Below, piece by piece: positions 1,199-45,080 of a DNA stretch of 64,000 bases. The stretch is from a bacterium (GTDB lineage Bacteria; Zhuqueibacterota; Zhuqueibacteria; Residuimicrobiales; Krinioviventaceae): the NCBI GenBank assembly GCA_963674595.2, contig CAXXFV010000016.1, forward strand, positions 320,001 to 384,000, read 5' to 3'. Numbering within the stretch: position 1 is the stretch's first letter; each line of letters opens with the position of its first letter. The notes below the pieces were generated by a model that was given only the letters and a program-made list of their open reading frames with translations, did no database searches and had not been told where the DNA came from. Position numbers and translations under genes: made by a program.

Positions 1199-2779
1199 TT
1201 AATCATTCGATTTATTGTCTTTCATTAATTTATAACTGATAGAGTCAACAAGGGCCTGCCAACTTGCCTCAATAATGTTTTCGGAAACACCAACAGTTCC
1301 CCACACGTCTTGTTCGTCGGTTGATTCGATAAGCACACGAACTTTGGCAGCGGTCGCCTTGTCACTATCTAAAACTCGAACCTTGTAATCTACTAATTTT
1401 AATTTTATTAATGAAGGATAAAATTTTTCCAATGCTTTTCGTAAAGCTTTATCAAGTGCGTCTACCGGTCCGTGTCCTTCAGCAGCCGTGTGCTCTTGTT
1501 CATTGCCGACATGCAGTTTCATAATAGCTTCGGAATAGAGCGCACCGTTTTCACGTTTATCAATGGTTACACGGGCAGAATCCAGTGTAAAAAAGTCTTT
1601 AAAGTTGCCGGTAGATTTTTGCACCAAAACTTCAAATGAACCGTCTGCACCTTCAAACTGGTAGCCGAGATGTTCAAGTTCCTTAAGTTTTTGAACGATA
1701 GTTAGTACCTCTTCCCGGTTACTGGAAAGGTCCAGGCCCATTTCTTTTGCTTTAACCAGAACATTGCTCTGACCGGATTGATCAGATACAAGGACCCGCT
1801 GATGGTTGCCAACCAGTTCAGGTTCTATATGTTCATAGGTCTTTCGGTTTCTAAGAATGGCACTTACGTGAATACCGCCTTTATGGGCAAATGCACTGTT
1901 GCCAACAAACGGCGCTTCTTCACGGTGAGGCAGATTTGCAATTTCACTCACATATCTGGAAATTTTTGTCAGACTTTTTAAATCCAGTTTGGGCGAAATA
2001 TCTATTGATGATTTTAATCCGGCGTTGGCGATAACAGAGCATAAATTTGCGTTACCGCATCGTTCTCCGTATCCGTTTATCGTTCCCTGAACATGACAAA
2101 CATTATGCTCAATGGCTAACAGACTGTTGGCAACAGCCAGGTCAGAATCGTTATGCGCGTGAATGCCAAGCGGAATATCAAGATTCATATTTTGAACTGT
2201 TTTAATAATTTCTGCGCATTTAGAGGGCAATGTTCCGCCGTTTGTATCACATAACACCAGGCAATCGGCACCAGCCTGAGCTGCTGTTTGAAGTGTTTTT
2301 AACGCATATTCCGGATTTTCAATATAACCGTCAAAAAAGTGTTCAGCGTCGTAAATGACTTCTTTTTTATTGTCTTTTAAATAAGATATGGAATCTCTAA
2401 TGATTTCAAGATTTTGTTCCAGAGTGGCCCGCAATCCTTCAATAACATGAAGATCCCATGATTTTCCAAAAATTGTTACAACGGGTGTATCTGCCTTTAA
2501 TAAAAGACTTATATTTTCATCTTCCGATACTTTAGCCTTTACTCTGCGGGTACTGCCGAATGCTGCAATTTTAGCATTTTGCCATTCCATGGTTTTGGCA
2601 ATGTTGAAAAATTCCATGTCTTTTGGATTGGATCCCGGCCAGCCGCCTTCGATATAATCAACGCCAAATTTGTCCAGTTTTTTGGCGATGTTTATTTTAT
2701 CGTTCGCTGAAAAGGAGATTCCTTCACTTTGAGATCCATCTCTTAATGTCGTGTCGTAAACGACCAATAAATTAGACAT
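1199..2779 (-). CDS. cimA: Citramalate synthase
   Basis: [50 protein letters not shown] and a LeuA-type allosteric C-domain. Confidence 0.92.
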
Positions 2780-2797
2780 GATACACCCTCCGCAACA

Positions 2798-3883
2798 CTA
2801 TGATAGTAGTTTTTTAACATTGTCAACGAGTAATTGTCCCATTTCTTTTGTTGTGACAACCTTTGAATCTGTTGCCGCAATATCTTTTGTCCTGAAACCC
2901 TGGTTCAAAACGTTGGATATTGCATCTTGTATGGCATCCGCTTCTTTTAATCGTGAAAAAGAGTGTTGAAGCATCATGGCTATAGAAGCGATTGTCGCAA
3001 TGGGATTGGCAATATTTTGTCCGGCAATATCCGGGGCAGAACCGTGAACAGGTTCATAAAGACCGGAACCATCGCCAAGACTGGCTGAAGGCAACATACC
3101 CAACGAGCCGGTCAACATTGAAGCTTCGTCACTTAATATGTCGCCAAACATATTACCCGTCAGAATAACATCAAACTGTTTTGGCCAGCGAATGAGCTGC
3201 ATGGCACAGTTATCCACATACATGTGGTCAAGTTGAACCTCTGGATATTCGCGGGCGGTTTGCATAACAATTTTTCGCCAGTATTGTGAAACTTCAAGCA
3301 CATTGGCTTTGTCGACAGACATGACTTTTTTATTTCGTTTCATGGCAGCATCAAATGCAACTTTGGCTATACGTTCCACTTCATGCTCAGAATAAACCAT
3401 TGTATTATAACCGCTACCTTTTTCATTATCAATACCACGTGGCTGACCGAAATAGATACCGCCGGTGAGTTCCCGAATAATAAGAATGTCAATACCTTCT
3501 ACCAGCTCTTTTTTCAGACTTGAAGCATCAACAAGACTTGGGTATACTTTTGCCGGACGAAGATTTGCATAGAGCCCCAAACCTTCGCGCAAACCTAACA
3601 GGCCCCGTTCCGGGCGCATATCTGAAGGCATGTTGTCCCAGCGTGGATCACCAATAGCGCCTAAAAGAACAGCATCACTGTTTTTACATGTTTCCAGGGT
3701 TTCTGCCGGTAATGGATTGGAATATTTTTCCAGCGCAATGCCGCCAACTTCAGCATAAACCAGCTCAACTGTAAAATCACTTGAATCTGCAACCGCTTGT
3801 AAAACATTAACTGCCTGTGAAACTACTTCCGGGCCTATACCGTCACCCGGCAAAACTGCAACTTTATAATTATCTTTTTTCAT
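2798..3883 (-). CDS. leuB: 3-isopropylmalate dehydrogenase
   Basis: [34 protein letters not shown]. Confidence 0.96.
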
Positions 3884-4386
3884 ACAAAACCACGTTGTTT
3901 TATCCAGTTCATTAATCCATCAGAGTTCATGAGTTCTTTCATGAATTCCGGAAATTGTGTCGAATTAAAATTTTGGCCGGACGGATGATGAGTCACCTGG
4001 CCGTTTTCAAAATCTATGGTAATTTCATCACCTTCTTTAACCATATCATACGCTTCGGTGCATTCAACAATCGGTAGACCGATGTTGATGGCGTTGCGAT
4101 AAAATATTCGTGCAAAACTTTTGGCAACAACACAGGCAATACCCGCCGCTTTAATGGCGATGGGTGCGTGCTCACGTGATGATCCGCAGCCGAAATTTTT
4201 TCCGGCAACAATAATATCACTTGGTTTTACTTTATTTGGAAAGTCTTCATCAGCATCAACCATGCAATATTTTGCCAGTTCATCAGGATCAAATGTATTT
4301 AAATAACGGGCAGGAATAATCAAATCTGTATTAATGTCGTCATCAAATATCCATACCCGGCCTTTTACTTGTTTTTCCATAGTCAT
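3880..4386 (-). CDS. leuD: 3-isopropylmalate dehydratase small subunit
   Basis: [40 protein letters not shown]. Confidence 0.95.
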
Positions 4387-4403
4387 TCTCTTTGTTAAAA
4401 TTT

Positions 4404-5657
4404 TTATAATGAATCCGGACCGGAGATAACGCCGTTAATGCCGGTTGCTGCGGCAACGGCCGGACTTGCTAAATAAACCTGACTTTTGGTGCTGCCCATT
4501 CTTCCAACAAAATTACGATTTGTTGTCGCCAGGGCTACTTCACCTTCTGCGAGAATACCCATGTGTCCGCCAAGACAGGGTCCGCAGGTTGGTGTTGAAA
4601 CCACTGCACCGGCCTGTACAAAAGTTTGTACCAAACCTTCTTCAATGGCCTGAAGGTAAATATCCTGAGTTGCCGGAAAAACAATAAAACGCAAATCATT
4701 ATGCACTTTTTTGCCTTTTAACAATTCCGCAGCAACCCGCAAATCCTCAATTCGTCCGTTTGTACAGGAACCAAGAACAACCTGGTCCACTTTGATGTCA
4801 TTTAGCGCGCTTACCGGCTTTGTGTTTGACGGCAAGTGCGGACAGGCAACTGTCGGTTCCATAGTGCTGACATCAAATTCCAGGGTTTGTTCGTATTCGG
4901 CATCTGCGTCCGGTTCAAAAATTTTAATTTCTCTTTTTGCACGTCCGTTATAATAGGCCTTTGTTTTTTCGTCTGCTGCAAAAATACCGTTTTTTGCTCC
5001 AGCCTCAATGGCCATGTTTGCCATTGTTAGCCGGCCTTCAACGGACATGTTTTCAATGGCCTGACCAGAAAATTCCAATGATTTATATAAAGCGCCGTCT
5101 ACACCGATTTGTCCGATCAGGTAGAGAATGAGGTCCTTACCGCTCAACCACTTGGGCATTTTGCCATTAAAAACGACTTTGATCGAAGTGGGTACTTTGA
5201 ACCAGGTTTCTCCTGTTATCATTGCGGCTGCCAGGTCTGTGCTGCCGACACCGGTCGAAAATGCACCAATAGCTCCATAGGTACATGTGTGAGAGTCTGC
5301 ACCGATAATGCAGTCACCCGGCACGACAAGGCCCTGTTCCGGCAATAAAGCATGTTCAATACCAACCCGGCCCATTTCGAAAAAGTTGACAATGTTATGT
5401 TCTCTGGCAAACTCACGCATCAGCTTGACCTGTTCCGCAGATTTTATATCCTTATTGGGTGTAAAATGATCCGGAACCAGGGCAATACGCGTATTGTCAA
5501 AGACTTTTTTTGCGCCAATTTTACGAAATTCTGAAATGGCCGGCGGAGCAGTTATATCGTTTGCGAGAATAAAATCCAGTTTGACGGTAATCAGATCACC
5601 CGGAGTAATTTTGTCCTTACCCGCATGTGCTGCTAAAATTTTTTCTGTTAATGTCAC
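4404..5657 (-). CDS. leuC: 3-isopropylmalate dehydratase large subunit (short, homoaconitase-like type)
   Basis: [33 protein letters not shown]. Confidence 0.95.
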
Positions 5658-5659
5658 TT

Positions 5660-7195
5660 TTATAACTCCGCTTGTATAGTACGCTGTTGCAGATGCAACA
5701 TTCTGTTTATAGCATTTAAATAAGCTTGAATGCTCGCTTCAATAACGTCAGTGCTTGTGCCGCGGCCAAGGAATTGTTCGCCGTTTTTTTGGATTCTAAC
5801 AATAACTTCACCCATAGCGTCTTTTCCGCCGGTTACGCCCCGAAGCGAATAATCTTTCAGCTTGAGATCAACCTTAACTATTTTATCAATGGCTTTGTAT
5901 GCTGCATCTACAGGACCATCACCAACAGCGGCTTCTTTAAAAGATTGGTCCTGATATTTTAAACTGAGTGTTGCAGTTGGTAGAGCCTGGTTACCGCTTA
6001 AAATATGAAAATACTCCAGATGGTATACTTCGTCAACTTCTTTGGATTCAGCGCCGACAAGTGCTATCAAATCTTCATCAAAGACTTCTTTCTTTTTATC
6101 GGCGACCTCTAAAAATCGTTGATAAACACTGTCCAGTTCTTCCTTTGGAAGATTATATCCAAGATCAGTTAACCGTTGTTTAATACCATGACGACCGGAG
6201 TGACGGCCAAGTACAATTTTGTTCGAATCCAGACCAACTTCGTCTGGTGTCATAATTTCATAGGTGCTGGCGTCTTTAATGACGGCATCCTGGTGAATTC
6301 CGGATTCATGAGCAAATGCATTTGCTCCAACAATTGCTTTGTTGGGCTGGACCGGAATGCCCATCAGACTGCTGACCATTCGACTGGTATGAATAATTTC
6401 TTTGGTGTTGATGTTGGTAATTTTGTTATAAAAATTCTGTCTTGTTTTTAAAGACATAACAACTTCTTCAAGAGAAGCATTACCAGCCCGTTCACCAATA
6501 CCGTTTATAGTGACTTCAACCTGTTGGGCGCCGTTTCGAACGGCTGCCAGTGTGTTGGCGACGGCCAAACCAAGATCATTATGACAATGGACGCTTAATA
6601 TCGCTTTATTCATATTTGGTACTTTTTCACGAATTTCACGGATTAGAGAACCAAATTCTTCGGGATTTGAATATCCAACCGTATCCGGGATGTTGATTGT
6701 TGTGGCACCTGCATTAATAGCCGTTTCTACAATGCGAAACAAAAATTCCCTTCCTGTCCGTGCGGAATCTTCTGGTGAAAATTCAATATCATCACAATAT
6801 TTTTTCGCGCGTTCAATACCGGCAACCGCCATTGCAAGAACATCATCTTCAGATTTTTTAAATTTTTTCTCAAGATGTATTTTTGAAGTTGCAACAAAGG
6901 TATGAATTCTGGGTTTTTTTGCACCTTTTAGCGCCTCTCCGGCTCTGTCTATGTCTAGTTCTACACATCGAGCCAGTGCACAAATAACAGGACCTTTTAC
7001 CTGTTTTGCAATTAGTTGTGTGGCTTCAAACTGAGCATCGGAAGAAACAGGAAAACCTGCTTCGATTACATCAACTTGTAAACGGGACAATTGGTGGGCA
7101 ATTGCCACTTTTTCAGGTACGTCAAGGCTGGCGCCCGGAGATTGTTCTCCATCACGCAGTGTTGTGTCAAAAACCAGAATACGGTTGTTATCCAT
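5660..7195 (-). CDS. leuA: 2-isopropylmalate synthase
   Basis: [39 protein letters not shown]. Confidence 0.96.
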
Positions 7196-7206
7196 AATAA
7201 ATCCTC

Positions 7207-8232
<1,026 letters not shown>

Positions 8233-8239
8233 TCATAAT

Positions 8240-8728
8240 TTACGGTTGAACGTTAGAATCTCTGACCATCGCCACGGTACCGGTCCGGGCTGTTTCTTTA
8301 ATGCCGAATGTTTTAACTGTTTCGAGAAAGGCATTGATTTTCGCTTCGCTTCCGGTAAGTTCAAAAGTTAGCGACCGGTTGCTGATATCGACAACTTTGG
8401 CCCGAAAAATGTTTGCAATTTGTGAAGCCTCTCCTCGTTTCGCCGGGGAACAGGCAATTTTTACAAGAACAAGTTCACGTGCAACAAAATCTTTGCCTGT
8501 TACATCCGATACACGGATGACATCAATTAGTTTGTTGAGTTGTTTGGTGACCTGTTCAATGACCCAATCGTCCCCGCGGACAACCAGGGTCATAGATGAT
8601 GAGCCGTCTGATCTTGGCAGACCGACTGTCAGGCTTTCGATATTATAACCACGTGCGCTAAAAAGTCCTGCTATACGGGCTAATATGCCTGCCTGGTTTT
8701 CTACTTCTAAATTAATAATGTGTCTCAT
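8240..8728 (-). CDS. ilvN: Acetolactate synthase small (regulatory) subunit
   Basis: VENQAGILARIAGLFSARGYNIESLTVG ACT domain; TAATG overlap with the upstream ilvB. Confidence 0.95.
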   Translation of the reverse strand: MRHIINLEVENQAGILARIAGLFSARGYNIESLTVGLPRSDGSSSMTLVVRGDDWVIEQVTKQLNKLIDVIRVSDVTGKDFVARELVLVKIACSPAKRGEASQIANIFRAKVVDISNRSLTFELTGSEAKINAFLETVKTFGIKETARTGTVAMVRDSNVQP

Positions 8729-10449
8729 TACGCCATACCTCTAATCATTTGATGAATAGGAGCCCCAGCCGGGACCATTGGATAGACATTTTCTTCGTTA
8801 TCTATAATAAATTCGACGACAACCGGTCCTTTGGTTTGCAGAGCTTTTTTAAGGACAGGTAAGACGTCTTCCTGTTTATCGGCAAAGAGTCCGGTAGCGC
8901 CATAAGCTTCGGCGAGTTTGGAAAAATTTGGTATATATGCTTGCGGGCAATTTTCACCGGACTGATCGCACTGAGGCGGACAGTTGATATTTCTTCTCAA
9001 ACAGATGGACGAGAACCTTCTGTCATAAAAGATGGCCTGCCATTGTCTGACCATACCCAGGGAATGGTTGTTAAGGATGATGATCTTGACAGGCAGTTGA
9101 TAAAGCACGGCGGTCGCGAGTTCCTGAATATTCATTTGAATGCTTCCGTCGCCGGCGATATCGATAACGGTTTTTTCGGGGTGAGCGATTTGTGCGCCGA
9201 TGGCCGCCGGGAATCCGTAACCCATGGTTCCGAGTCCGCCTGAAGAGATAAAGGTCCTTGGTTTGATAAAGTTAAAGAACTGGGCGGTCCACATCTGGTT
9301 TTGCCCGACTTCTGTGGTGATGATGGCATCGTGTTTTGTCAGTTCAGCGACTTTTTCAATAACATATTGTGGTTGAATATGGCCGTTATCGCCGTATTTC
9401 AGAGCATGATCGTTTTTCCAGTTTTGAACTTGCTGCGTCCATTCCGTATTTTTTTTCTCAGTAACGATTTTATTGAGTTCATTAAGAACGTTTTTAACGT
9501 CCCCGACGACCGGCAGAAAGACCTTGACGTTTTTCCTGATGGTCGTTGGGTCGATGTCGATATGAACGATTTTTGCATTAGGCGCGAATTTGCTGACTTT
9601 GCCTGTAACTCTGTCGTCAAAGCGGACGCCGATAGCAATGAGGAGGTCGGCTTCCTGAATGGCATAATTGGCATATTCGGTCCCGTGCATGCCGATCATT
9701 TTAAGGGCATTTGGGTGGTCTTCGGGAAATGTACCGAGTCCCATAAGAGATGTTGTTACAGGTGCGTCAATTTTTGCAGCCAGGGTTTTGAGCTGTTCGG
9801 AAGCTTCGCTTGAAATAACGCCGCCGCCTGCAAAGATAACAGGTTTATGTGCAGCATCAATGGCTTTGGCCACTTTTTTGATTTGTTGAATATGACCCTG
9901 CATGGTTGGTTTGTAGCTGGGAATATCAACGGAATCGGGATAGGGGATTAATGTTTTGGCCTGCTGAATATCCTTGGGTATATCGATGAGCACCGGTCCC
10001 GGTCTGCCGCTTTTTGCAATCATAAAAGCGGATTTGAGGATGTGAGGCAGCTCATCAACGTTTTTAACGAGATAGTTGTGTTTTGTAATAGACCGGCTGA
10101 TACCGACCATGTCGGCTTCCTGAAAGGCATCATTACCGATAAGGTGAGTAGAAACCTGGCCGGTAATAGCGACAATAGGGATGGAATCCATGTGAGCAGT
10201 TGCAAGACCTGTAACAATGTTTGTTGCGCCAGGTCCGGATGTAGCAATACAAACACCGACTTCACCTGAAGCCCGTGCGAACCCGTCTGCTGCATGGATG
10301 GCTCCCTGTTCATGGCGTGTCAGGTAAAAAGGAACCTCACCATCATATAACAGATTGAAAATATCAATAACGGCTGCTCCCGGGTATCCAAAAATTGCTC
10401 TGACATTTTCCGCTTTAAAAGCATGTATTATTAATTCTGCACCAGTCAT
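8728..10449 (-). CDS. ilvB: Acetolactate synthase large subunit, downstream copy
   Basis: RHEQGAIHAADG, ATSGPGATN, GDGSIQMN, MVRQWQ. Confidence 0.95.
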   Translation of the reverse strand: MTGAELIIHAFKAENVRAIFGYPGAAVIDIFNLLYDGEVPFYLTRHEQGAIHAADGFARASGEVGVCIATSGPGATNIVTGLATAHMDSIPIVAITGQVSTHLIGNDAFQEADMVGISRSITKHNYLVKNVDELPHILKSAFMIAKSGRPGPVLIDIPKDIQQAKTLIPYPDSVDIPSYKPTMQGHIQQIKKVAKAIDAAHKPVIFAGGGVISSEASEQLKTLAAKIDAPVTTSLMGLGTFPEDHPNALKMIGMHGTEYANYAIQEADLLIAIGVRFDDRVTGKVSKFAPNAKIVHIDIDPTTIRKNVKVFLPVVGDVKNVLNELNKIVTEKKNTEWTQQVQNWKNDHALKYGDNGHIQPQYVIEKVAELTKHDAIITTEVGQNQMWTAQFFNFIKPRTFISSGGLGTMGYGFPAAIGAQIAHPEKTVIDIAGDGSIQMNIQELATAVLYQLPVKIIILNNHSLGMVRQWQAIFYDRRFSSICLRRNINCPPQCDQSGENCPQAYIPNFSKLAEAYGATGLFADKQEDVLPVLKKALQTKGPVVVEFIIDNEENVYPMVPAGAPIHQMIRGMA

Positions 10450-12091
10450 TAAAATTTCATTTCTTTTAAGTTCGTTGTATATAAAGTTATGCTAATCCTC
10501 TAATCATTTGATGAATAGGAGCCCCAGCCGGGACCATTGGATAGACATTTTCTTCGTTATCTATAATAAATTCGACGACAACCGGTCCTTTGGTTTGCAG
10601 CGCTTTTTTAAGGACAGGTAGGACGTCTTCCTGTTTATCGGCAAAGAGTCCGGTAGCGCCATAAGCTTCGGCGAGTTTGGAAAAATTTGGTATATATGCT
10701 TGCGGGCAATTTTCACCGGACTGATCGCACTGAGGCGGACAGTTAATATTACGTCTTAAACAGATGGAGGAGAACCTTCTGTCATAAAAGATGGCCTGCC
10801 ATTGTCTGACCATACCCAGGGAATGGTTGTTAAGGATGATGATCTTGACAGGCAGTTGATAAAGCACGGCGGTAGCGAGTTCCTGAATATTCATTTGAAT
10901 GCTTCCGTCGCCGGCGATATCGATAACGGTTTTTTCGGGGTGAGCGATTTGTGCGCCGATGGCCGCCGGGAATCCGTAACCCATGGTTCCGAGTCCGCCT
11001 GAAGAGATAAAGGTCCTTGGTTTGATAAAGTTAAAGAACTGGGCGGTCCACATCTGGTTTTGCCCGACTTCTGTGGTGATGATGGCATCGTGTTTTGTCA
11101 GTTCAGCGACTTTTTCAATAACATATTGTGGTTGAATATGGCCGTTATCGCCGTATTTCAGAGCATGATCGTTTTTCCAGTTTTGAACTTGCTGTGTCCA
11201 TTCCGTATTTTTTTTCTCAGTAACGATTTTATTGAGTTCATTAAGAACGTTTTTAACGTCCCCGACGACCGGCAGAAAGACCTTGACGTTTTTCCTGATG
11301 GTCGTTGGGTCGATGTCGATATGAACGATTTTTGCATTAGGCGCAAATTTGCTGACTTTGCCTGTAACTCTGTCGTCAAAGCGGACGCCGATAGCAATGA
11401 GGAGATCGGCTTCCTGAATGGCATAATTGGCATATTCGGTCCCGTGCATGCCGATCATTTTAAGGGCATTTGGGTGGTCTTCGGGAAATGTACCGAGTCC
11501 CATAAGAGATGTTGTTACAGGTGCGTCAATTTTTGCAGCCAGGGTTTTGAGCTGTTCGGAAGCTTCGCTTGAAATAACGCCGCCGCCTGCAAAGATAACG
11601 GGTTTATGTGCAGCATCAATGGCTTTGGCCACTTTTTTGATTTGTTGAATATGACCCTGCATGGTTGGTTTGTAGCTGGGAATATCAACGGAATCGGGAT
11701 AGGGGATTAATGTTTTGGCCTGCTGAATATCCTTGGGTATATCGATGAGCACCGGTCCTGGTCTGCCGCTTTTTGCAATCATAAAAGCGGATTTGAGGAT
11801 GTGAGGCAGCTCATCAACGTTTTTAACGAGATAGTTGTGTTTTGTAATAGACCGGCTGATACCGACCATGTCGGCTTCCTGAAAGGCATCATTACCGATA
11901 AGGTGAGTAGAAACCTGGCCGGTAATAGCGACAATAGGGATGGAATCCATGTGAGCAGTTGCAAGACCTGTAACAATGTTTGTTGCGCCAGGTCCGGATG
12001 TAGCAATACAAACACCGACTTCACCTGAAGCCCGTGCGAACCCGTCTGCTGCATGGATGGCTCCCTGTTCATGACGTGTCAGGTAAAAAGG
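8738..12091. repeat. Tandem ~1.6 kb near-identical direct repeat (about 8738-10332 and 10497-12091, offset 1759) covering the ilvB cores
   Basis: Base-by-base comparison by eye shows identity except for roughly 15 synonymous substitutions. Confidence 0.95.
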
Positions 12092-12208
12092 GATTTCAGA
12101 TTCATAAAGTACATTAAAGATATCAATAACTGAACCACCTGGATATCCAAAAATAGCTTTAACATTTTCACGCTGAAACGCGTGAAAGATCATTTGTGCA
12201 CCGGTCAT
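10487..12208 (-). CDS. ilvB: Acetolactate synthase large subunit, upstream copy
   Basis: Same motifs; GYPGG; RBS AAGGA upstream. Confidence 0.95.
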   Translation of the reverse strand: MTGAQMIFHAFQRENVKAIFGYPGGSVIDIFNVLYESEIPFYLTRHEQGAIHAADGFARASGEVGVCIATSGPGATNIVTGLATAHMDSIPIVAITGQVSTHLIGNDAFQEADMVGISRSITKHNYLVKNVDELPHILKSAFMIAKSGRPGPVLIDIPKDIQQAKTLIPYPDSVDIPSYKPTMQGHIQQIKKVAKAIDAAHKPVIFAGGGVISSEASEQLKTLAAKIDAPVTTSLMGLGTFPEDHPNALKMIGMHGTEYANYAIQEADLLIAIGVRFDDRVTGKVSKFAPNAKIVHIDIDPTTIRKNVKVFLPVVGDVKNVLNELNKIVTEKKNTEWTQQVQNWKNDHALKYGDNGHIQPQYVIEKVAELTKHDAIITTEVGQNQMWTAQFFNFIKPRTFISSGGLGTMGYGFPAAIGAQIAHPEKTVIDIAGDGSIQMNIQELATAVLYQLPVKIIILNNHSLGMVRQWQAIFYDRRFSSICLRRNINCPPQCDQSGENCPQAYIPNFSKLAEAYGATGLFADKQEDVLPVLKKALQTKGPVVVEFIIDNEENVYPMVPAGAPIHQMIRGLA

Positions 12209-12291
12209 TTTATTCCTTTCAGATTCAAATTGAAATCCTGAGGTTTGTTAAAATTACGTTATTACAAATTAATCAATAACTTGTATCTTTA

Positions 12292-12427
12292 CAAAAAAAC
12301 AACCTGCCACTGCTGGTGCAATCGTACAAAAGAAACTTTTACTTGATTTAAATGATTGAAAATTTTGTTCTTGTAGTACCTCTTGCACCTGTTGTGAATT
12401 AGCTAATTCGACGTAGCGGCAAGAGGT
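12292..12427 (-). promoter_or_regulatory. Transcription attenuator of the ilv-leu operon (alternative 1:2, 2:3 and 3:4 pairings plus U-tract)
   Basis: mRNA ACCUCUUGC (12419-12427) pairs with GCAAGAGGU (12378-12386). Overlapping GGUGCAA (12383-12389) pairs with UUGCACC (12315-12321). An imperfect hairpin at about 12300-12325 is followed by U7 (12293-12299). Confidence 0.75.
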
Positions 12428-12596
12428 TTAGAATCAAGAGAGGTAATATCTCTAGGCGTAATATAAAACCTAGAAGAATATATAAGAGGCCTAAAAAGAC
12501 AAAATAAACATATTTAACCACTAACTCATTCACTAATAAAACAGCGTCAATGAGCTTGGTTATCAAACTGATAAATATGTTAAACAGTATGTTCAT
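12399..12596 (-). CDS. Ile/Val/Leu-rich leader peptide (65 aa)
   Basis: 36 of 65 residues are L/I/V (20 L, 10 I, 6 V); includes 4 CTA and 5 ATA codons; lies directly upstream of ilvB, with its 3' end overlapping the attenuator. Confidence 0.8.
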   Translation of the reverse strand: MNILFNIFISLITKLIDAVLLVNELVVKYVYFVFLGLLYILLGFILRLEILPLLILNLLPLRRIS

Positions 12597-12631
12597 TATG
12601 TCTCAAATTTAGTGTAATTTGTAAAGTATAT

Positions 12632-12659
12632 AATTTAAATAAAAATATAAGAATGTCAA
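12632..12659 (-). promoter_or_regulatory. Putative sigma70 promoter of the ilv-leu operon
   Basis: TTGACA (12654-12659)-16 nt-TAAATT on the minus strand, about 35 nt before the leader ATG. Confidence 0.55.
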
Positions 12660-12675
12660 TAGAAAAATTCAATTT

Positions 12676-13200
12676 TCATAAAAATTTTCTTTTTTGCAAA
12701 AGCTGATAAAAGATAACAGCCAGAATTCCACCTGAAATCGCGGTTAAAAGTTGAGGGAATGTAAGGACGGCAATTATTTTATCTGATATAGTTTTACTAA
12801 ATAAAAGCGGAAATATCTTTGTCACAGAAAAGTATAACCATAAAAATTTTAAAAATGACCCGGCGATGATACTCAACCATAACCAGAATGAATGAAATAA
12901 TAGTGTTTCGCGAAAATATCGTTTTCTGTAAAACGAAAAGATTGTTACATAGGTTATATTACCAATTATGATCGCAGGGACCAACGGATATAAAACAGCC
13001 GGTAATTGCCCACGGATAAGAGCAATCATGGGTGTCAATACACCGAGAAAAATTCCTGCTAAGGGGTTTAAAACCAGGGTTGTAAAAATGAGCATTAAAT
13101 TAACAAGCGTTCCGGTGATGGGAGAAGGAAAACCAAGCATCTCCAGGATCACTGTAATTGTTAAAAGAATAACCAGTCTGCTTTTATATTTCATGTGCAT
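12676..13200 (-). CDS. ECF transporter S component (substrate unknown)
   Basis: 174 aa hydrophobic protein; PITGTLVNLML, GVLTPMIAL, PAIIIGN, PQLLTAISGG pattern. Confidence 0.7.
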   Translation of the reverse strand: MHMKYKSRLVILLTITVILEMLGFPSPITGTLVNLMLIFTTLVLNPLAGIFLGVLTPMIALIRGQLPAVLYPLVPAIIIGNITYVTIFSFYRKRYFRETLLFHSFWLWLSIIAGSFLKFLWLYFSVTKIFPLLFSKTISDKIIAVLTFPQLLTAISGGILAVIFYQLLQKRKFL

Positions 13201-13336
13201 TTATACATGTTATAATAAATTAATTTATCTGTAATTAAGGTTGATATTATAATAATTCCATCTTTTAAAGTCAACATCGTTTTTATTTGCTTTACCTGAG
13301 AAATTATTTATATTATTAAATATCAAATATATAACA

Positions 13337-15495
13337 GTGAGTTATAAAATGCCGCTTTTTCTTTTAATAAATATTTTAGGATTTGGGTTCGGCACGGCCC
13401 TTACCCTTATTCTGTTAAGCCTTTCTTTAAAAAAATATCCCAAACATTTTTCTGATTTTTCCTTTGGAATTGTTCTGTTTGCCTGTTTGTTATGGCATGG
13501 CGGTAATTTTATATCTCTGTTAATGACATTATTATTTGGGACGTTTACCACCCTTGTGGCGAATCTTGCCATGCTTTTTGCCTATTTGGGAATGGCAGCA
13601 CTTCCTTCTGTATTGATTCATGAACATTTGGCAACCTTTTACAGTATAAAACATCCTAAACTTGTTGCTTTGGAGAGAAAACACTATTTATTGTTTGCTC
13701 TTCCATACCTGCCTTTTTTGTTAATTATTATTTCGGGATTATCGCATTTTACTGCTGATTTTTCAATTTCTCAAAATTTTATAAACAGAATAAGAATTCC
13801 TTTTGATCTGTGGCTGTTAATTGCCTTGCTGTTTAGTGTTTTTCTGTCAAACAAACTTTACCATCTTTTATCAGAAAAAGCCGATCAGCATTTTTATCGT
13901 GACATAGCCTATATATTGGGCGCTGTTGCAGCCGGTCTTGTCTTTATTTATATTATACCCATATATCGCCTTGCTTATATCGGGCCTTATTTTAACCTCC
14001 TTATGAATCTGGCTCCATCTTATCCAATGGCACTGTTGGCTTATTATGTGTATCGTTACAATTTTTACAGACTGGTCATAAAACCAAGTTTGATTTATTC
14101 TTTAATATACGGCATTGTTATGGGGGTTTATTTGCTGGGGATTCGCCGCCTTGGTGAATATTTGAAACAGTTCCCGGAAATAAATTCGGAATTTATTGAA
14201 GGTTTGTTGTTAATTGCCCTTGTCTTTGCTTTTCAACCTTTTCGAAATCAATTACAAATTCGTTTGGATAAGGTATTTTTAAGGACCGTTATTATTATCA
14301 ACAATTTTTGCGTGAATTGTCTGATACAATCAGCAGTATTGTTGATTTGGAAACGTTGTTATTCACAATTAAAGATGCCATGATGACCACATTAAAAGCG
14401 CGTTATTGCACGTTGATTGTTTTTCTGGATACTGAACATGGTACGGAAATTTACAAATCCGTTGGTAATAAAGATGTTTATGCATTATCCGACATTGTCA
14501 ACGCACTTGTTGCTACTCAACATTTTCGTCTAAGGCGTCAAATGCGTGACCGCCGGGTCGTCTCTGCTCTTCGAAAAAATGCTTTGAAATAGCCATCCCG
14601 GTTTATTCTAATGAAAAATTTACCGGATTGATATGTCTTTCAGAAAACAGACCGTAATGCTTACTCTGATGAAGAGTTTGACATGCTGCAAACATTTGCA
14701 AATCAGGTTGGTTTGGCTTTTACCAATACTCTTTTAATTCAGGAACGGATTGATCTTGAAGGCCGGATATACGAATCTGAAAAATTGAATACGTTAGGGC
14801 GGCTTGCTACGACAATGGCGCATGAAATTAAAAACCCTCTTTCATCCATTAAGACCATTATTCAGGTTTTGCATGAAAATGCTGAAACAAACGACAAGCA
14901 TGATTTTATGCTGGTTATCAATGAAATTAACCGATTGAATGGTGTTTTGGAAAAACTATTAAGCTTTGCCCGTTCGGCACCTGCTAATATTGAACATTTC
15001 GATGTGTCTCAGGTTATACAAGAAACTTATGAATTATTAAAACACCAGGCCGTTAAATCGAAAATAGATTTAAAATTTGAGAACCAATCTGATATTTGGG
15101 TAATGAATAAACGGCAACCGTTCCGGGAAGTTATTTTTAACCTTGTTTTTAATGCTATTCAGGCGATTACCGGATCAGGGAGTATTACCATTTCCATTGT
15201 TCTAAAAAAGAATCAGGCTATGGAAACACAAAAAAAGAATTGGCCTTTGCGTCGAAACAATTACATTTTAATTTCAGTTAGTGATACGGGTCAGGGCATT
15301 CCTCCGGAAATCAGGGACAAAATATTTGATCCATTTTTTACAACAAAAACCGTGGGTACCGGACTTGGCCTTGCCATTGTTAAAAGAAATGTGTCTGTTC
15401 TGCATGGAGAAATATATGTGATTCACCATGAAATCGGCACGGAATTTTTAATTTATTTACCTAAAGAGATAAAAGATAACTATGACAAAATGTAA
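13337..15495 (+). pseudogene. Membrane-bound GAF sensor histidine kinase, broken by four single-base deletions (likely sequencing errors)
   Basis: Multi-TM N-terminus (13337), GAF segment (14308), HisKA H-box AHEIKNPL and G-boxes DTGQGI/GTGLGL (14683). Frames rejoin by adding one base near 14280, 14585, 14647 and 14653. Confidence 0.8.
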
Positions 15496-16879: not shown

Positions 16880-16884
16880 TAAAT

Positions 16885-16920
16885 AAAAAACCCCTGCTCA
16901 AAAGGGCAGGGGTAAATTTT
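16885..16920. terminator. Intrinsic terminator between convergent genes
   Basis: AAAAAA-CCCCTGCTC-AAAA-GGGCAGGGG-TAAATTTT. Confidence 0.8.
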
Positions 16921-45051: not shown

Positions 45052-45080
45052 AAAGGGTAACAATCGTTACCCTTTTTTTT
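45052..45080 (+). terminator. Intrinsic terminator
   Basis: AAAGGGTAAC-AATC-GTTACCC-TTTTTTTT. Confidence 0.88.

Follow-up and report, generated by a model that had tools for sequence, protein, structure and literature searches.

The closest described systems are the E. coli leaders ilvL (of ilvGMEDA), ivbL (of ilvBN) and leuL. Like the leader reported here, from what is probably a KSB1 bacterium, they combine a short ORF rich in Ile, Leu and Val (ILV) before the operon with alternative helices and a U tract. In ilvL, too, some ILV codons lie far from the stop codon, and in our model stalls at its codons 2-19 all weaken its terminator. The initial annotation had set the leader against enterobacterial ones of about 30 codons, and rightly so: the three E. 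coli peptides count 32, 32 and 28 amino acids, whereas leaders of the KSB1 clade span 46-65 codons and share no sequence with them, the one in the window (the whole 64,000-nucleotide stretch of DNA that was analyzed) being about twice as long. The local terminator hairpin amounts to 13-15 kcal/mol in the E. coli leaders versus 2.5 kcal/mol in the window, and the distance from stop codon to U tract is 44-54 nt versus 84-97 nt in the KSB1 loci.

Other systems resemble the locus in part. The attenuator of M. tuberculosis ilvB1 works likewise, with two hairpins, a leader of about 120 nt, four regulatory codons, a local terminator, and a ribosome at the stop codon that masks the antiterminator (PMC13236596); by comparison, the terminator proposed for the window would take its 5' strand from Leu codons about 105 nt upstream of their partner. 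Upstream of C. glutamicum ilvBNC, a terminator, an antiterminator and an anti-antiterminator are likewise described, with rapid exchange, but the peptide is leaderless and of 15 amino acids, and the hairpins are local and in linear order (PMC11857589). The S. aureus ilvD leader, for which Leu-dependent attenuation was proposed from promoter-activity and mutant data, is likewise rich in Ile and Leu and has no Val near the switch; it differs in its 26 amino acids, in a local terminator 52 nt after the stop codon and in co-regulation by CodY (PMC5794164). A further type consists of the uORF-controlled Rho attenuators of tnaC, mgtA, corA and speF, rut sites being regions of 60-90 nt with more C than G and weak structure (PMC12360218). 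The leader ORFs tnaC, mgtL, corL and speFL are, as to a varying extent in the KSB1 loci, followed by a weakly structured region with more C than G and by a weak intrinsic terminator or none, but they sense Trp, Mg2+ or ornithine and not runs of ILV codons, and the spacer in the window is not C-rich (PMC12360218). Leaders without clear terminators are already known (PMC1262725, PMC12360218), and leader ORFs are often annotated as hypothetical (PMC2965389).

Two deltaproteobacterial loci found in our own genome scan are also instructive. L049 (4519-4730, in a deltaproteobacterial MAG) has a 40-codon leader and a strong terminator with U9 before cimA-leuA-leuC-leuD-ilvB, and shows the same Ile-Val-Leu block order as the leader of the window; thus, long block-ordered ILV leaders are not unique to KSB1. 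L048 (9756-9930) encodes an Ile/Leu leader of 34 codons; a canonical antiterminator and a canonical terminator follow it, ahead of ilvB. Both differ from the KSB1 leader by their strong canonical terminators and by ILV blocks lying wholly inside the default-antiterminator window, and the KSB1 segment 1/2 motif described below is absent from both. In searches of the open literature, we found neither an attenuator from KSB1 nor a terminator that arises when control codons pair over a long range. The Gelfand and Lyubetsky groups have surveyed attenuation comparatively, and their work may bear on the KSB1 leader.

The leader ORF of the window heads an ilvB-ilvB-ilvN-ilvC-leuA-leuC-leuD-leuB-cimA operon on the minus strand (Table 1), so that a short ORF rich in cognate codons, with a predicted promoter of its own, stands directly before the cognate operon. 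The perfect -35 hexamer precedes the leader ATG by 63 nt, and an identical hexamer occurs 59-70 nt upstream in all five clade loci. The promoter candidate as a whole matches at 10 of 12 positions, and the count of such sites is not above that in shuffles (10 vs 8.2). No clear Shine-Dalgarno sequence was found ahead of the leader ORF in this locus. Rfam covariance models run over the whole window at the gathering score gave a tRNA as their single match and none at the leader, which is therefore not a T-box, a riboswitch or a known Rfam leader family. Upstream, an ECF transporter S component (PF12822; 12676-13200, minus strand) stops 17 nt short of the -35 hexamer; no terminator was found in the interval, so that upstream transcription could also enter the attenuator. 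Further on, a membrane sensor histidine kinase region (13337-15495, plus strand) is seemingly split over 13337-14383, 14308-14592 and 14683-15495; these ORFs precede a sigma-54-type regulator, and frameshifts are possible. Within the operon, the tandem ilvB copies (10487-12208 and 8728-10449, minus strand) are equally long, with 54 mismatches over 1722 bases; the first 135 bases account for 37 of these. Of the 13 amino acid differences, 12 fall in the first 39 residues, including the region of a conserved Gly-Tyr-Pro-Gly motif. L002-L004 have a single ilvB copy each. The pair could be a duplication with gene conversion yielding two isozymes, or an assembly artefact of strain mixing.

Table 1. 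Features of the leader region and of its operon, by position in the window
Feature	Position	Strand	Remarks
Sigma70-type promoter, predicted	12630..12659	-	Perfect -35 hexamer 12659-12654; -10 candidates end at 12632 or 12630
Leader ORF	12399..12596	-	65 codons, 36 Ile/Leu/Val; leader ORFs at the same place in L001-L004
Stable in-ORF hairpin	12515..12562	-	Codons 12-28; 3' arm with Val22, Val26 and Val27
Direct masking window	12402..12440	-	Codons 53-65: Leu53, 54, 56, 58, 59, 61; Ile55, 64; no Val
Segment 1	12415..12427	-	Codons 57-61 with Leu58-Leu59; alternative partners are segments 2 and 4
Stop-codon hairpin, small	12396..12409	-	One arm of a predicted three-way junction; equivalent in L003
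Segment 2	12376..12389	-	Pairs with segment 1 or segment 3
G-poor, weakly structured spacer	12328..12375	-	Between segments 2 and 3
Segment 3	12315..12327	-	Partner of segment 2
Segment 4	12303..12311	-	Pairs contiguously with 12423-12415 (9 pairs); putative 3' strand of the terminator stem
U-rich tract	12293..12302	-	Abuts segment 4; 9 of its 10 nt are U
ilvB (acetolactate synthase large subunit)	10487..12208	-	First regulated gene; TIGR00118 above cut-off
Second ilvB, ilvN, ilvC, leuA, leuC, leuD, leuB, cimA	1199..10449	-	Rest of the operon

The composition of the leader agreed with the initial annotation, which had counted 55% branched-chain residues with 4 CTA and 5 ATA codons: there are 20 Leu, 10 Ile and 6 Val, a total that none of 200,000 base shuffles reached (mean 19.3). 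The leader is the most ILV-rich of the 275 window ORFs of 40-120 amino acids, with close runners-up (fractions of 0.53 and 0.52), and it exceeds the best 65-residue stretch (32 ILV) taken from 56 long ORFs. Its distal part is also rich, with 14 ILV in the 25 codons 2-26 (p = 0.001). The description of three ordered blocks of Ile, Val and Leu stood in part only. All six Val lie inside 15 codons (span p = 0.001), but the Ile codons are divided 5+5, overall block segregation was not significant (p = 0.55 and 0.24), nor was the separation of Ile from Leu (Fisher p = 0.10), and the order differs in relatives; CTA was mildly enriched (p = 0.018) and ATA not significantly so (p = 0.064), all of these being post hoc tests without correction. 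The hairpin inside the ORF reaches -17.3 kcal/mol, a value attained by none of 200 shuffles and, in a best-window test, by 1 and 0 of 150. As it coincides with the Val block, the composition of that block may be partly structural. This hairpin is a candidate early pause site; in relatives it is significant in L002 and weaker in L001, L003 and L004 (8-22 of 150 shuffles).

Among the 120 IlvN relatives listed, 12 bear an NCBI organism label, which is candidate division KSB1 for 8 of them and plain 'bacterium' for 4; KSB1 is thus the probable lineage. The relatives' loci came from the genome scan, as the best 80 of at least 583 stretches. Among these 80, IlvB identity was 70-76% for four loci (L001-L004) and 54-61% for the other 76. 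The four close relatives form one clade with the window in the IlvB tree (SH-aLRT 100), a quick tree of 42 rows that holds L001-L040, i.e., 40 of the 80 loci, and the two window copies. Each of the four carries a leader ORF (46, 58, 65 and at least 51 codons long), with 12-15 ILV in the last 20 codons read. The 8-nt core of segment 1, with Leu codons CUC UUG, is identical in all five clade loci, and in the four ungapped ones (window, L002-L004) segment 1 precedes the stop by 8-9 codons. Segment 2 is conserved in L002, L003 and L004, L001 being gapped, and the combined segment 1-segment 2 pattern was found in these three of the best 80 loci, with an N gap at that place in L001. The sequence of segment 3 is different in every locus, while its pairing with segment 2 is kept. 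The proposed check for composition and pairings shared by related ilvB upstream regions was thus positive for segment 1 (four of four relatives) and for segments 2 and 3 (the three ungapped ones), but not for the block order: Ile-Val-Leu is not conserved in L001-L004, whose first 25 codons hold 2, 5, 6 and 0 ILV respectively, versus 13 in the window. Leader length and the 3' switch are lineage traits, and the block order is not.

By contrast with the motif, the peptide itself is not maintained. A search among proteins of 35-114 amino acids returned the peptide itself as its only candidate, and no Pfam or NCBIfam family matched; the relatives keep position, nucleotide motif and Ile/Leu richness, while peptide sequence and length vary. 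Composition, position and pairing are conserved without conservation of the peptide, which argues for a ribosome-mediated attenuator and not a membrane protein. The survey for such leaders covered the 71 of the 80 loci with enough upstream DNA (the other 9 were too short) and flagged 10: L001-L004, the canonical L048 and L049, and L033, L034, L045 and L047, three of these last four overlapping the upstream gene. Also, a recurring charged small ORF of 69-85 amino acids lies directly before ilvB or ilvD in L013, L022, L043, L056, L061, L069 and L070, a set of Nitrospirota and deltaproteobacterial loci. The first 25 in-frame leader codons of L001 (71-150) and L004 (2379-2460), two loci that form sister branches of the IlvB tree, contain almost no ILV, and their +1 frame shows an Ile/Val/Met cluster of 6 in 9 codons (shuffle p = 0.003 and < 0.001), in or beside predicted hairpins. 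This cluster could be the relic of compensating frameshifts, an overlapping mini-ORF or a by-product of structure.

Two of the pairings initially described were confirmed. Helix 1:2, which joins the last Leu codons to segment 2 past the stop (12427-12419 with 12386-12378), has -18.1 kcal/mol, and 1 of 200 shuffles was as good; the alternative helix 2:3 (12389-12376 with 12327-12315) has -15.4 kcal/mol and was equalled by 7 of 1000 shuffles in the window and by 8, 32 and 5 of 1000 in L002, L003 and L004. Mutually exclusive helices over the control codons, 1:2 versus 2:3, thus occur in all four ungapped loci. RNAalifold on these 4 sequences recovered 1:2 alone, and none of 10 consensus pairs was compensatory, 1:2 being near-invariant and the variable 3' part poorly aligned. 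Without a ribosome, the probability of 1:2 depends on the 5' boundary of the folded RNA (0.11 vs 0.91); path barriers out of 1:2 were 20 and 16 kcal/mol, as upper bounds computed without pseudoknot routes. The spacer between segments 2 and 3 measures 38-64 nt in the four ungapped loci, and the C:G ratio of its core is 7:3 in the window and 13:4, 9:1 and 22:5 in L002, L003 and L004.

The third element, an imperfect hairpin of segments 3 and 4 followed by U7, was borne out for the U7 (12299-12293) and not for the role as terminator. The 3:4 hairpin has -4.6 kcal/mol, compared with -5.2 for a competing hairpin that does not abut the U tract. As good a 3:4 pairing was obtained in 627 of 1000 shuffles for the window and in 526, 417 and 953 for L002, L003 and L004, i.e., 3:4 is no better than shuffles in any of the four ungapped loci. 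A terminator pattern scan of 11500-13500 gave 2 sites, both inside ilvB (1.6 expected), without listing the 3:4 hairpin, and none of the 314 sites from a hairpin and U-tract scan at -5 kcal/mol or better fell in 12280-12320. Opening the local hairpin costs 2.5 kcal/mol in the window and 3.5 in L003, versus 11.5-15.0 in four canonical leaders. Elsewhere in the window strong ordinary terminators were found (-15.9 kcal/mol at 16890, -11.9 at 45073); that at 16880-16920, where a hairpin with U7 separates two convergent genes and begins some 7 nt past the stop codon of one of them, indicates that this genome uses canonical terminators.

In the window, a better partner for segment 4 is segment 1. 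As good a 1:4 pairing occurred in 2 of 1000 shuffles for the window, 22 for L003, 246 for L002 and 705 for L004; the stem is thus above shuffles in the two ungapped loci with a U-rich tract at that place and not in L002 and L004. As for the tract itself, L003 has a U-rich one, L001 has U6 past its gap, that of L002 is weak, and L004 has none. Out of 294 leader windows, segment 1 gave the strongest pairing with segment 4 (-13.8 vs -9.2), and 27 of 1314 random window stretches paired with segment 4 equally well; the 1:4 test was devised after the fold had been seen and is thus post hoc, and part of the complementarity follows from the resemblance of segment 4 to segment 2. The window and L003 fold to the same three-way junction, composed of the 1:4 stem, the stop-codon hairpin and a 2:3 arm (z -2.9 and -3.7), and the stem directly abuts a tract of 8 nt, 7 of which are U. 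In the window, opening the 6 nt before the U tract is predicted to cost 9.5 kcal/mol when segment 1 is free and 2:3 has formed, 2.2 when 1:2 is in place and 3.1 when segment 1 is masked; the respective values for L003 are 7.3, 3.3 and 0.2. Three correctly placed canonical terminators gave 10.4-11.7. Two misplaced control rows were left out, in this measure the terminator at 45073 (1.3) and in the local opening costs L048 (5.1, versus 11.7 in this measure). At equilibrium without a ribosome, the 1:4 state is favored (-29.3 vs -27.5 in the window, -31.6 vs -27.0 in L003). A long-range terminator stem is mechanistically possible, since an oligonucleotide pairing in trans beside a U tract can replace the hairpin and release RNA polymerase in vitro (PMC3351154). 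A 13-bp complementarity in L002 between about 5090-5102 and about 5345-5357 (distal codons 17-20 with a site after segment 3) was not significant (62 of 300 shuffles).

The codons able to act were determined in a masking model, in which the RNA under the ribosome is removed and the RNA 3' of it folded; it was calibrated on E. coli ilvL, ivbL and leuL and on L048 and L049. In the window, ribosomes on codons 20-52 leave 1:2 undisturbed and the helix is lost only for codons 53/54-65, which upholds the initial view that the distal Ile and Val blocks lie too far away to mask segment 1. The masking window is free of Val also in L002 and L003, whereas that of L004 includes Val55. With a ribosome at the stop codon, the terminator stem costs 8-15 kcal/mol to open in all five canonical controls, versus 0 in the window and 2 in L003. 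Together with the shuffle results for 3:4, this does not support the description of the locus as a full classical attenuator: neither a stable local 3:4 hairpin with its U tract nor, in the model, a block of 2:3 by the ribosome at the stop was found. That ribosome leaves 2:3 at P 0.5-0.6 in the window, while 2:3 is mostly blocked in L002 and L004. The gap from stop to segment 2 is 10-11 nt in the window and L003, so that segment 2 is left uncovered by the terminating ribosome, versus 6 nt in L002 and L004, the loci without 1:4. In the controls, the ILV codons fall largely on terminator-weakening positions, and in ilvL and L049 the whole run does.

Under classical logic a late ribosome leads to super-attenuation (PMC1183508), and the distal ILV codons (2-26) would then have the wrong sign for starvation. 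The same would apply to the suggestion that distal stalls promote Rho loading or uncoupling, as both should lower expression under starvation. Long-range pairing, also suggested for the distal blocks, survives as the putative 1:4 stem and fails as a distal decoy for segment 1: a pairing of Val26-Val27 with 12420-12414, for a ribosome at codons 12-17, was equalled by 394 of 2000 codon-order shuffles, 7 of 57 shuffles gave as many switched positions, and relatives show such windows at non-cognate codons.

That the element is some ribosome-dependent ILV attenuator is in our opinion very probable, and the conserved pairings, the operon position and a peptide without homologues support attenuation over an ordinary membrane peptide, as initially proposed. 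As to its wiring, we tentatively favor the long-range helix 1:4, and not the local 3:4, as the main OFF or terminator stem in this locus, a reading we hold to be quite possible without calling it probable. The ORF, its operon context, the conservation and the complementarities are read directly from the DNA, whereas the states and energies invoked here are folding predictions, and from these we infer translation, pausing, termination and the kinetics of the leader. As RNA polymerase copies the leader, helix 1:2 would form first (predicted P about 1) and hide segment 1. With ample Leu, Ile and Val, the ribosome would run through, melt 1:2 and sit at the stop, with segment 2 exposed by the 10-nt gap. 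Segment 3 would then capture segment 2, and the freed segment 1 would pair with segment 4 right before the U tract, ending transcription at about 12295. A ribosome stalled on codons 53-62 is predicted to mask segment 1 and thereby to allow readthrough. One delayed further upstream would leave 1:2 intact and also give readthrough, provided that 1:2 is kinetically trapped; this is the least certain step. As equilibrium without a ribosome favors 1:4, fast strand exchange would terminate on distal stalls, and in L003 the model gives a terminator of 7-8 kcal/mol for such stalls. Taken to its full extent, the logic would be inverted: 1:2 would act as the antiterminator, the Leu control codons as the 5' strand of a junction-closing long-range terminator stem, and the ribosome as a helicase that has to complete all 65 codons soon enough for segment 2 to pass to segment 3. 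This complete version we regard as rather unlikely.

Several observations weigh against the 1:4 reading. Since 1:4 is missing in two of the four loci and 2:3 is kept in all, 2:3 has a role independent of 1:4; the near-absence of ILV from the first 25 codons of L001 and L004 counts in the same direction, and a 57-nt spacer could let the ribosome leave and 1:2 re-form, so that the switch would leak. The post hoc design of the 1:4 test, the lack of compensatory pairs in four sequences, the equilibrium preference for 1:4, the dependence on the 5' boundary and the want of a clear Shine-Dalgarno sequence also speak against it. In a classical scheme, 2:3 would be the antiterminator, the weak 3:4 would terminate with help from NusA/NusG, and 1:4 would be at most a back-up. 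The scheme gives 2:3 one consistent role, is in line with the conservation of 1:2 and 2:3 in all four loci, and agrees with that of PMC1183508; by eye, a minimal hairpin of 4-5 bp followed by a U-rich tail can be seen after segment 3 in the window, L002 and L003. Set against it are the shuffle results for 3:4, the low opening cost of the local hairpin, the failure of the ribosome at the stop to block 2:3 in the window, and the strong ordinary terminators that the genome builds elsewhere, and we rate it as unlikely. Equally unlikely, on the same reading, is that codons 53-65 alone sense Leu and Ile, the distal blocks being structural or neutral, which would accord with the coincidence of the strong hairpin and the Val block. 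Leu and Val share a biosynthetic precursor, and Leu sensing could thus cover a Val shortage. All four loci fit a hybrid model: a classical family with a weak 3:4, in some of whose members 1:4 has taken over.

We consider Rho-dependent attenuation distinctly improbable. The G-poor spacer and segment 3 would here be a Rho loading site, open with 1:2 and looped with the 2:3 of a stalled ribosome, and the spacers are indeed nearly unstructured with more C than G in all four loci, most strongly in L004 (22 C, 5 G), the locus that lacks a U tract. Measured by what is described for rut sites, L004 fits, L002 and L003 fit partly and the window weakly: A and U predominate in its spacer core (7 C in 51 nt), C and G are equal (13 each) in the first 80 nt after segment 2, an inert linker would be G-poor too, and the U tract and 1:4 of the window would be left unexplained. 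A translational attenuation, in which the choice between 1:2 and 2:3 opens or hides the ilvB ribosome-binding site, draws on the pyrimidine-rich segments 1 and 3 and on L003, where the 1:2 state adds 3.3 kcal/mol to the cost of opening that site; in the other three loci the states differ by at most 1 kcal/mol and in the opposite direction (7.4 vs 8.1 in the window, 2.7 vs 3.0 in L002, 5.3 vs 6.3 in L004), and this mode seems very improbable. Even less can be said for a small membrane protein or an action of the nascent chain (SRP binding, arrest) with the RNA pairings secondary. Hydropathy windows of 19 residues do reach 2.3 and codons 29-46 carry no charge, but conservation as an ordinary membrane protein away from ilv genes was not found in the searches described above, and what the relatives conserve is not the peptide.

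The preferred reading, with 1:4 as terminator, would have several consequences if true. It would be a natural intrinsic terminator built by long-range pairing with the sensing codons themselves, the meaning of the textbook helices would be reversed, and codons 30-50 positions upstream of the switch could sense amino acids with the correct sign. Under the full inverted logic, the whole leader would be a timer that integrates over Ile, Val and Leu, and a leader left untranslated would turn the operon on, not off. The gene-control switch before the ilv-leu operon of these uncultured, probable KSB1 bacteria is very probably real, and the wiring of its stop signal may depart from the textbook.
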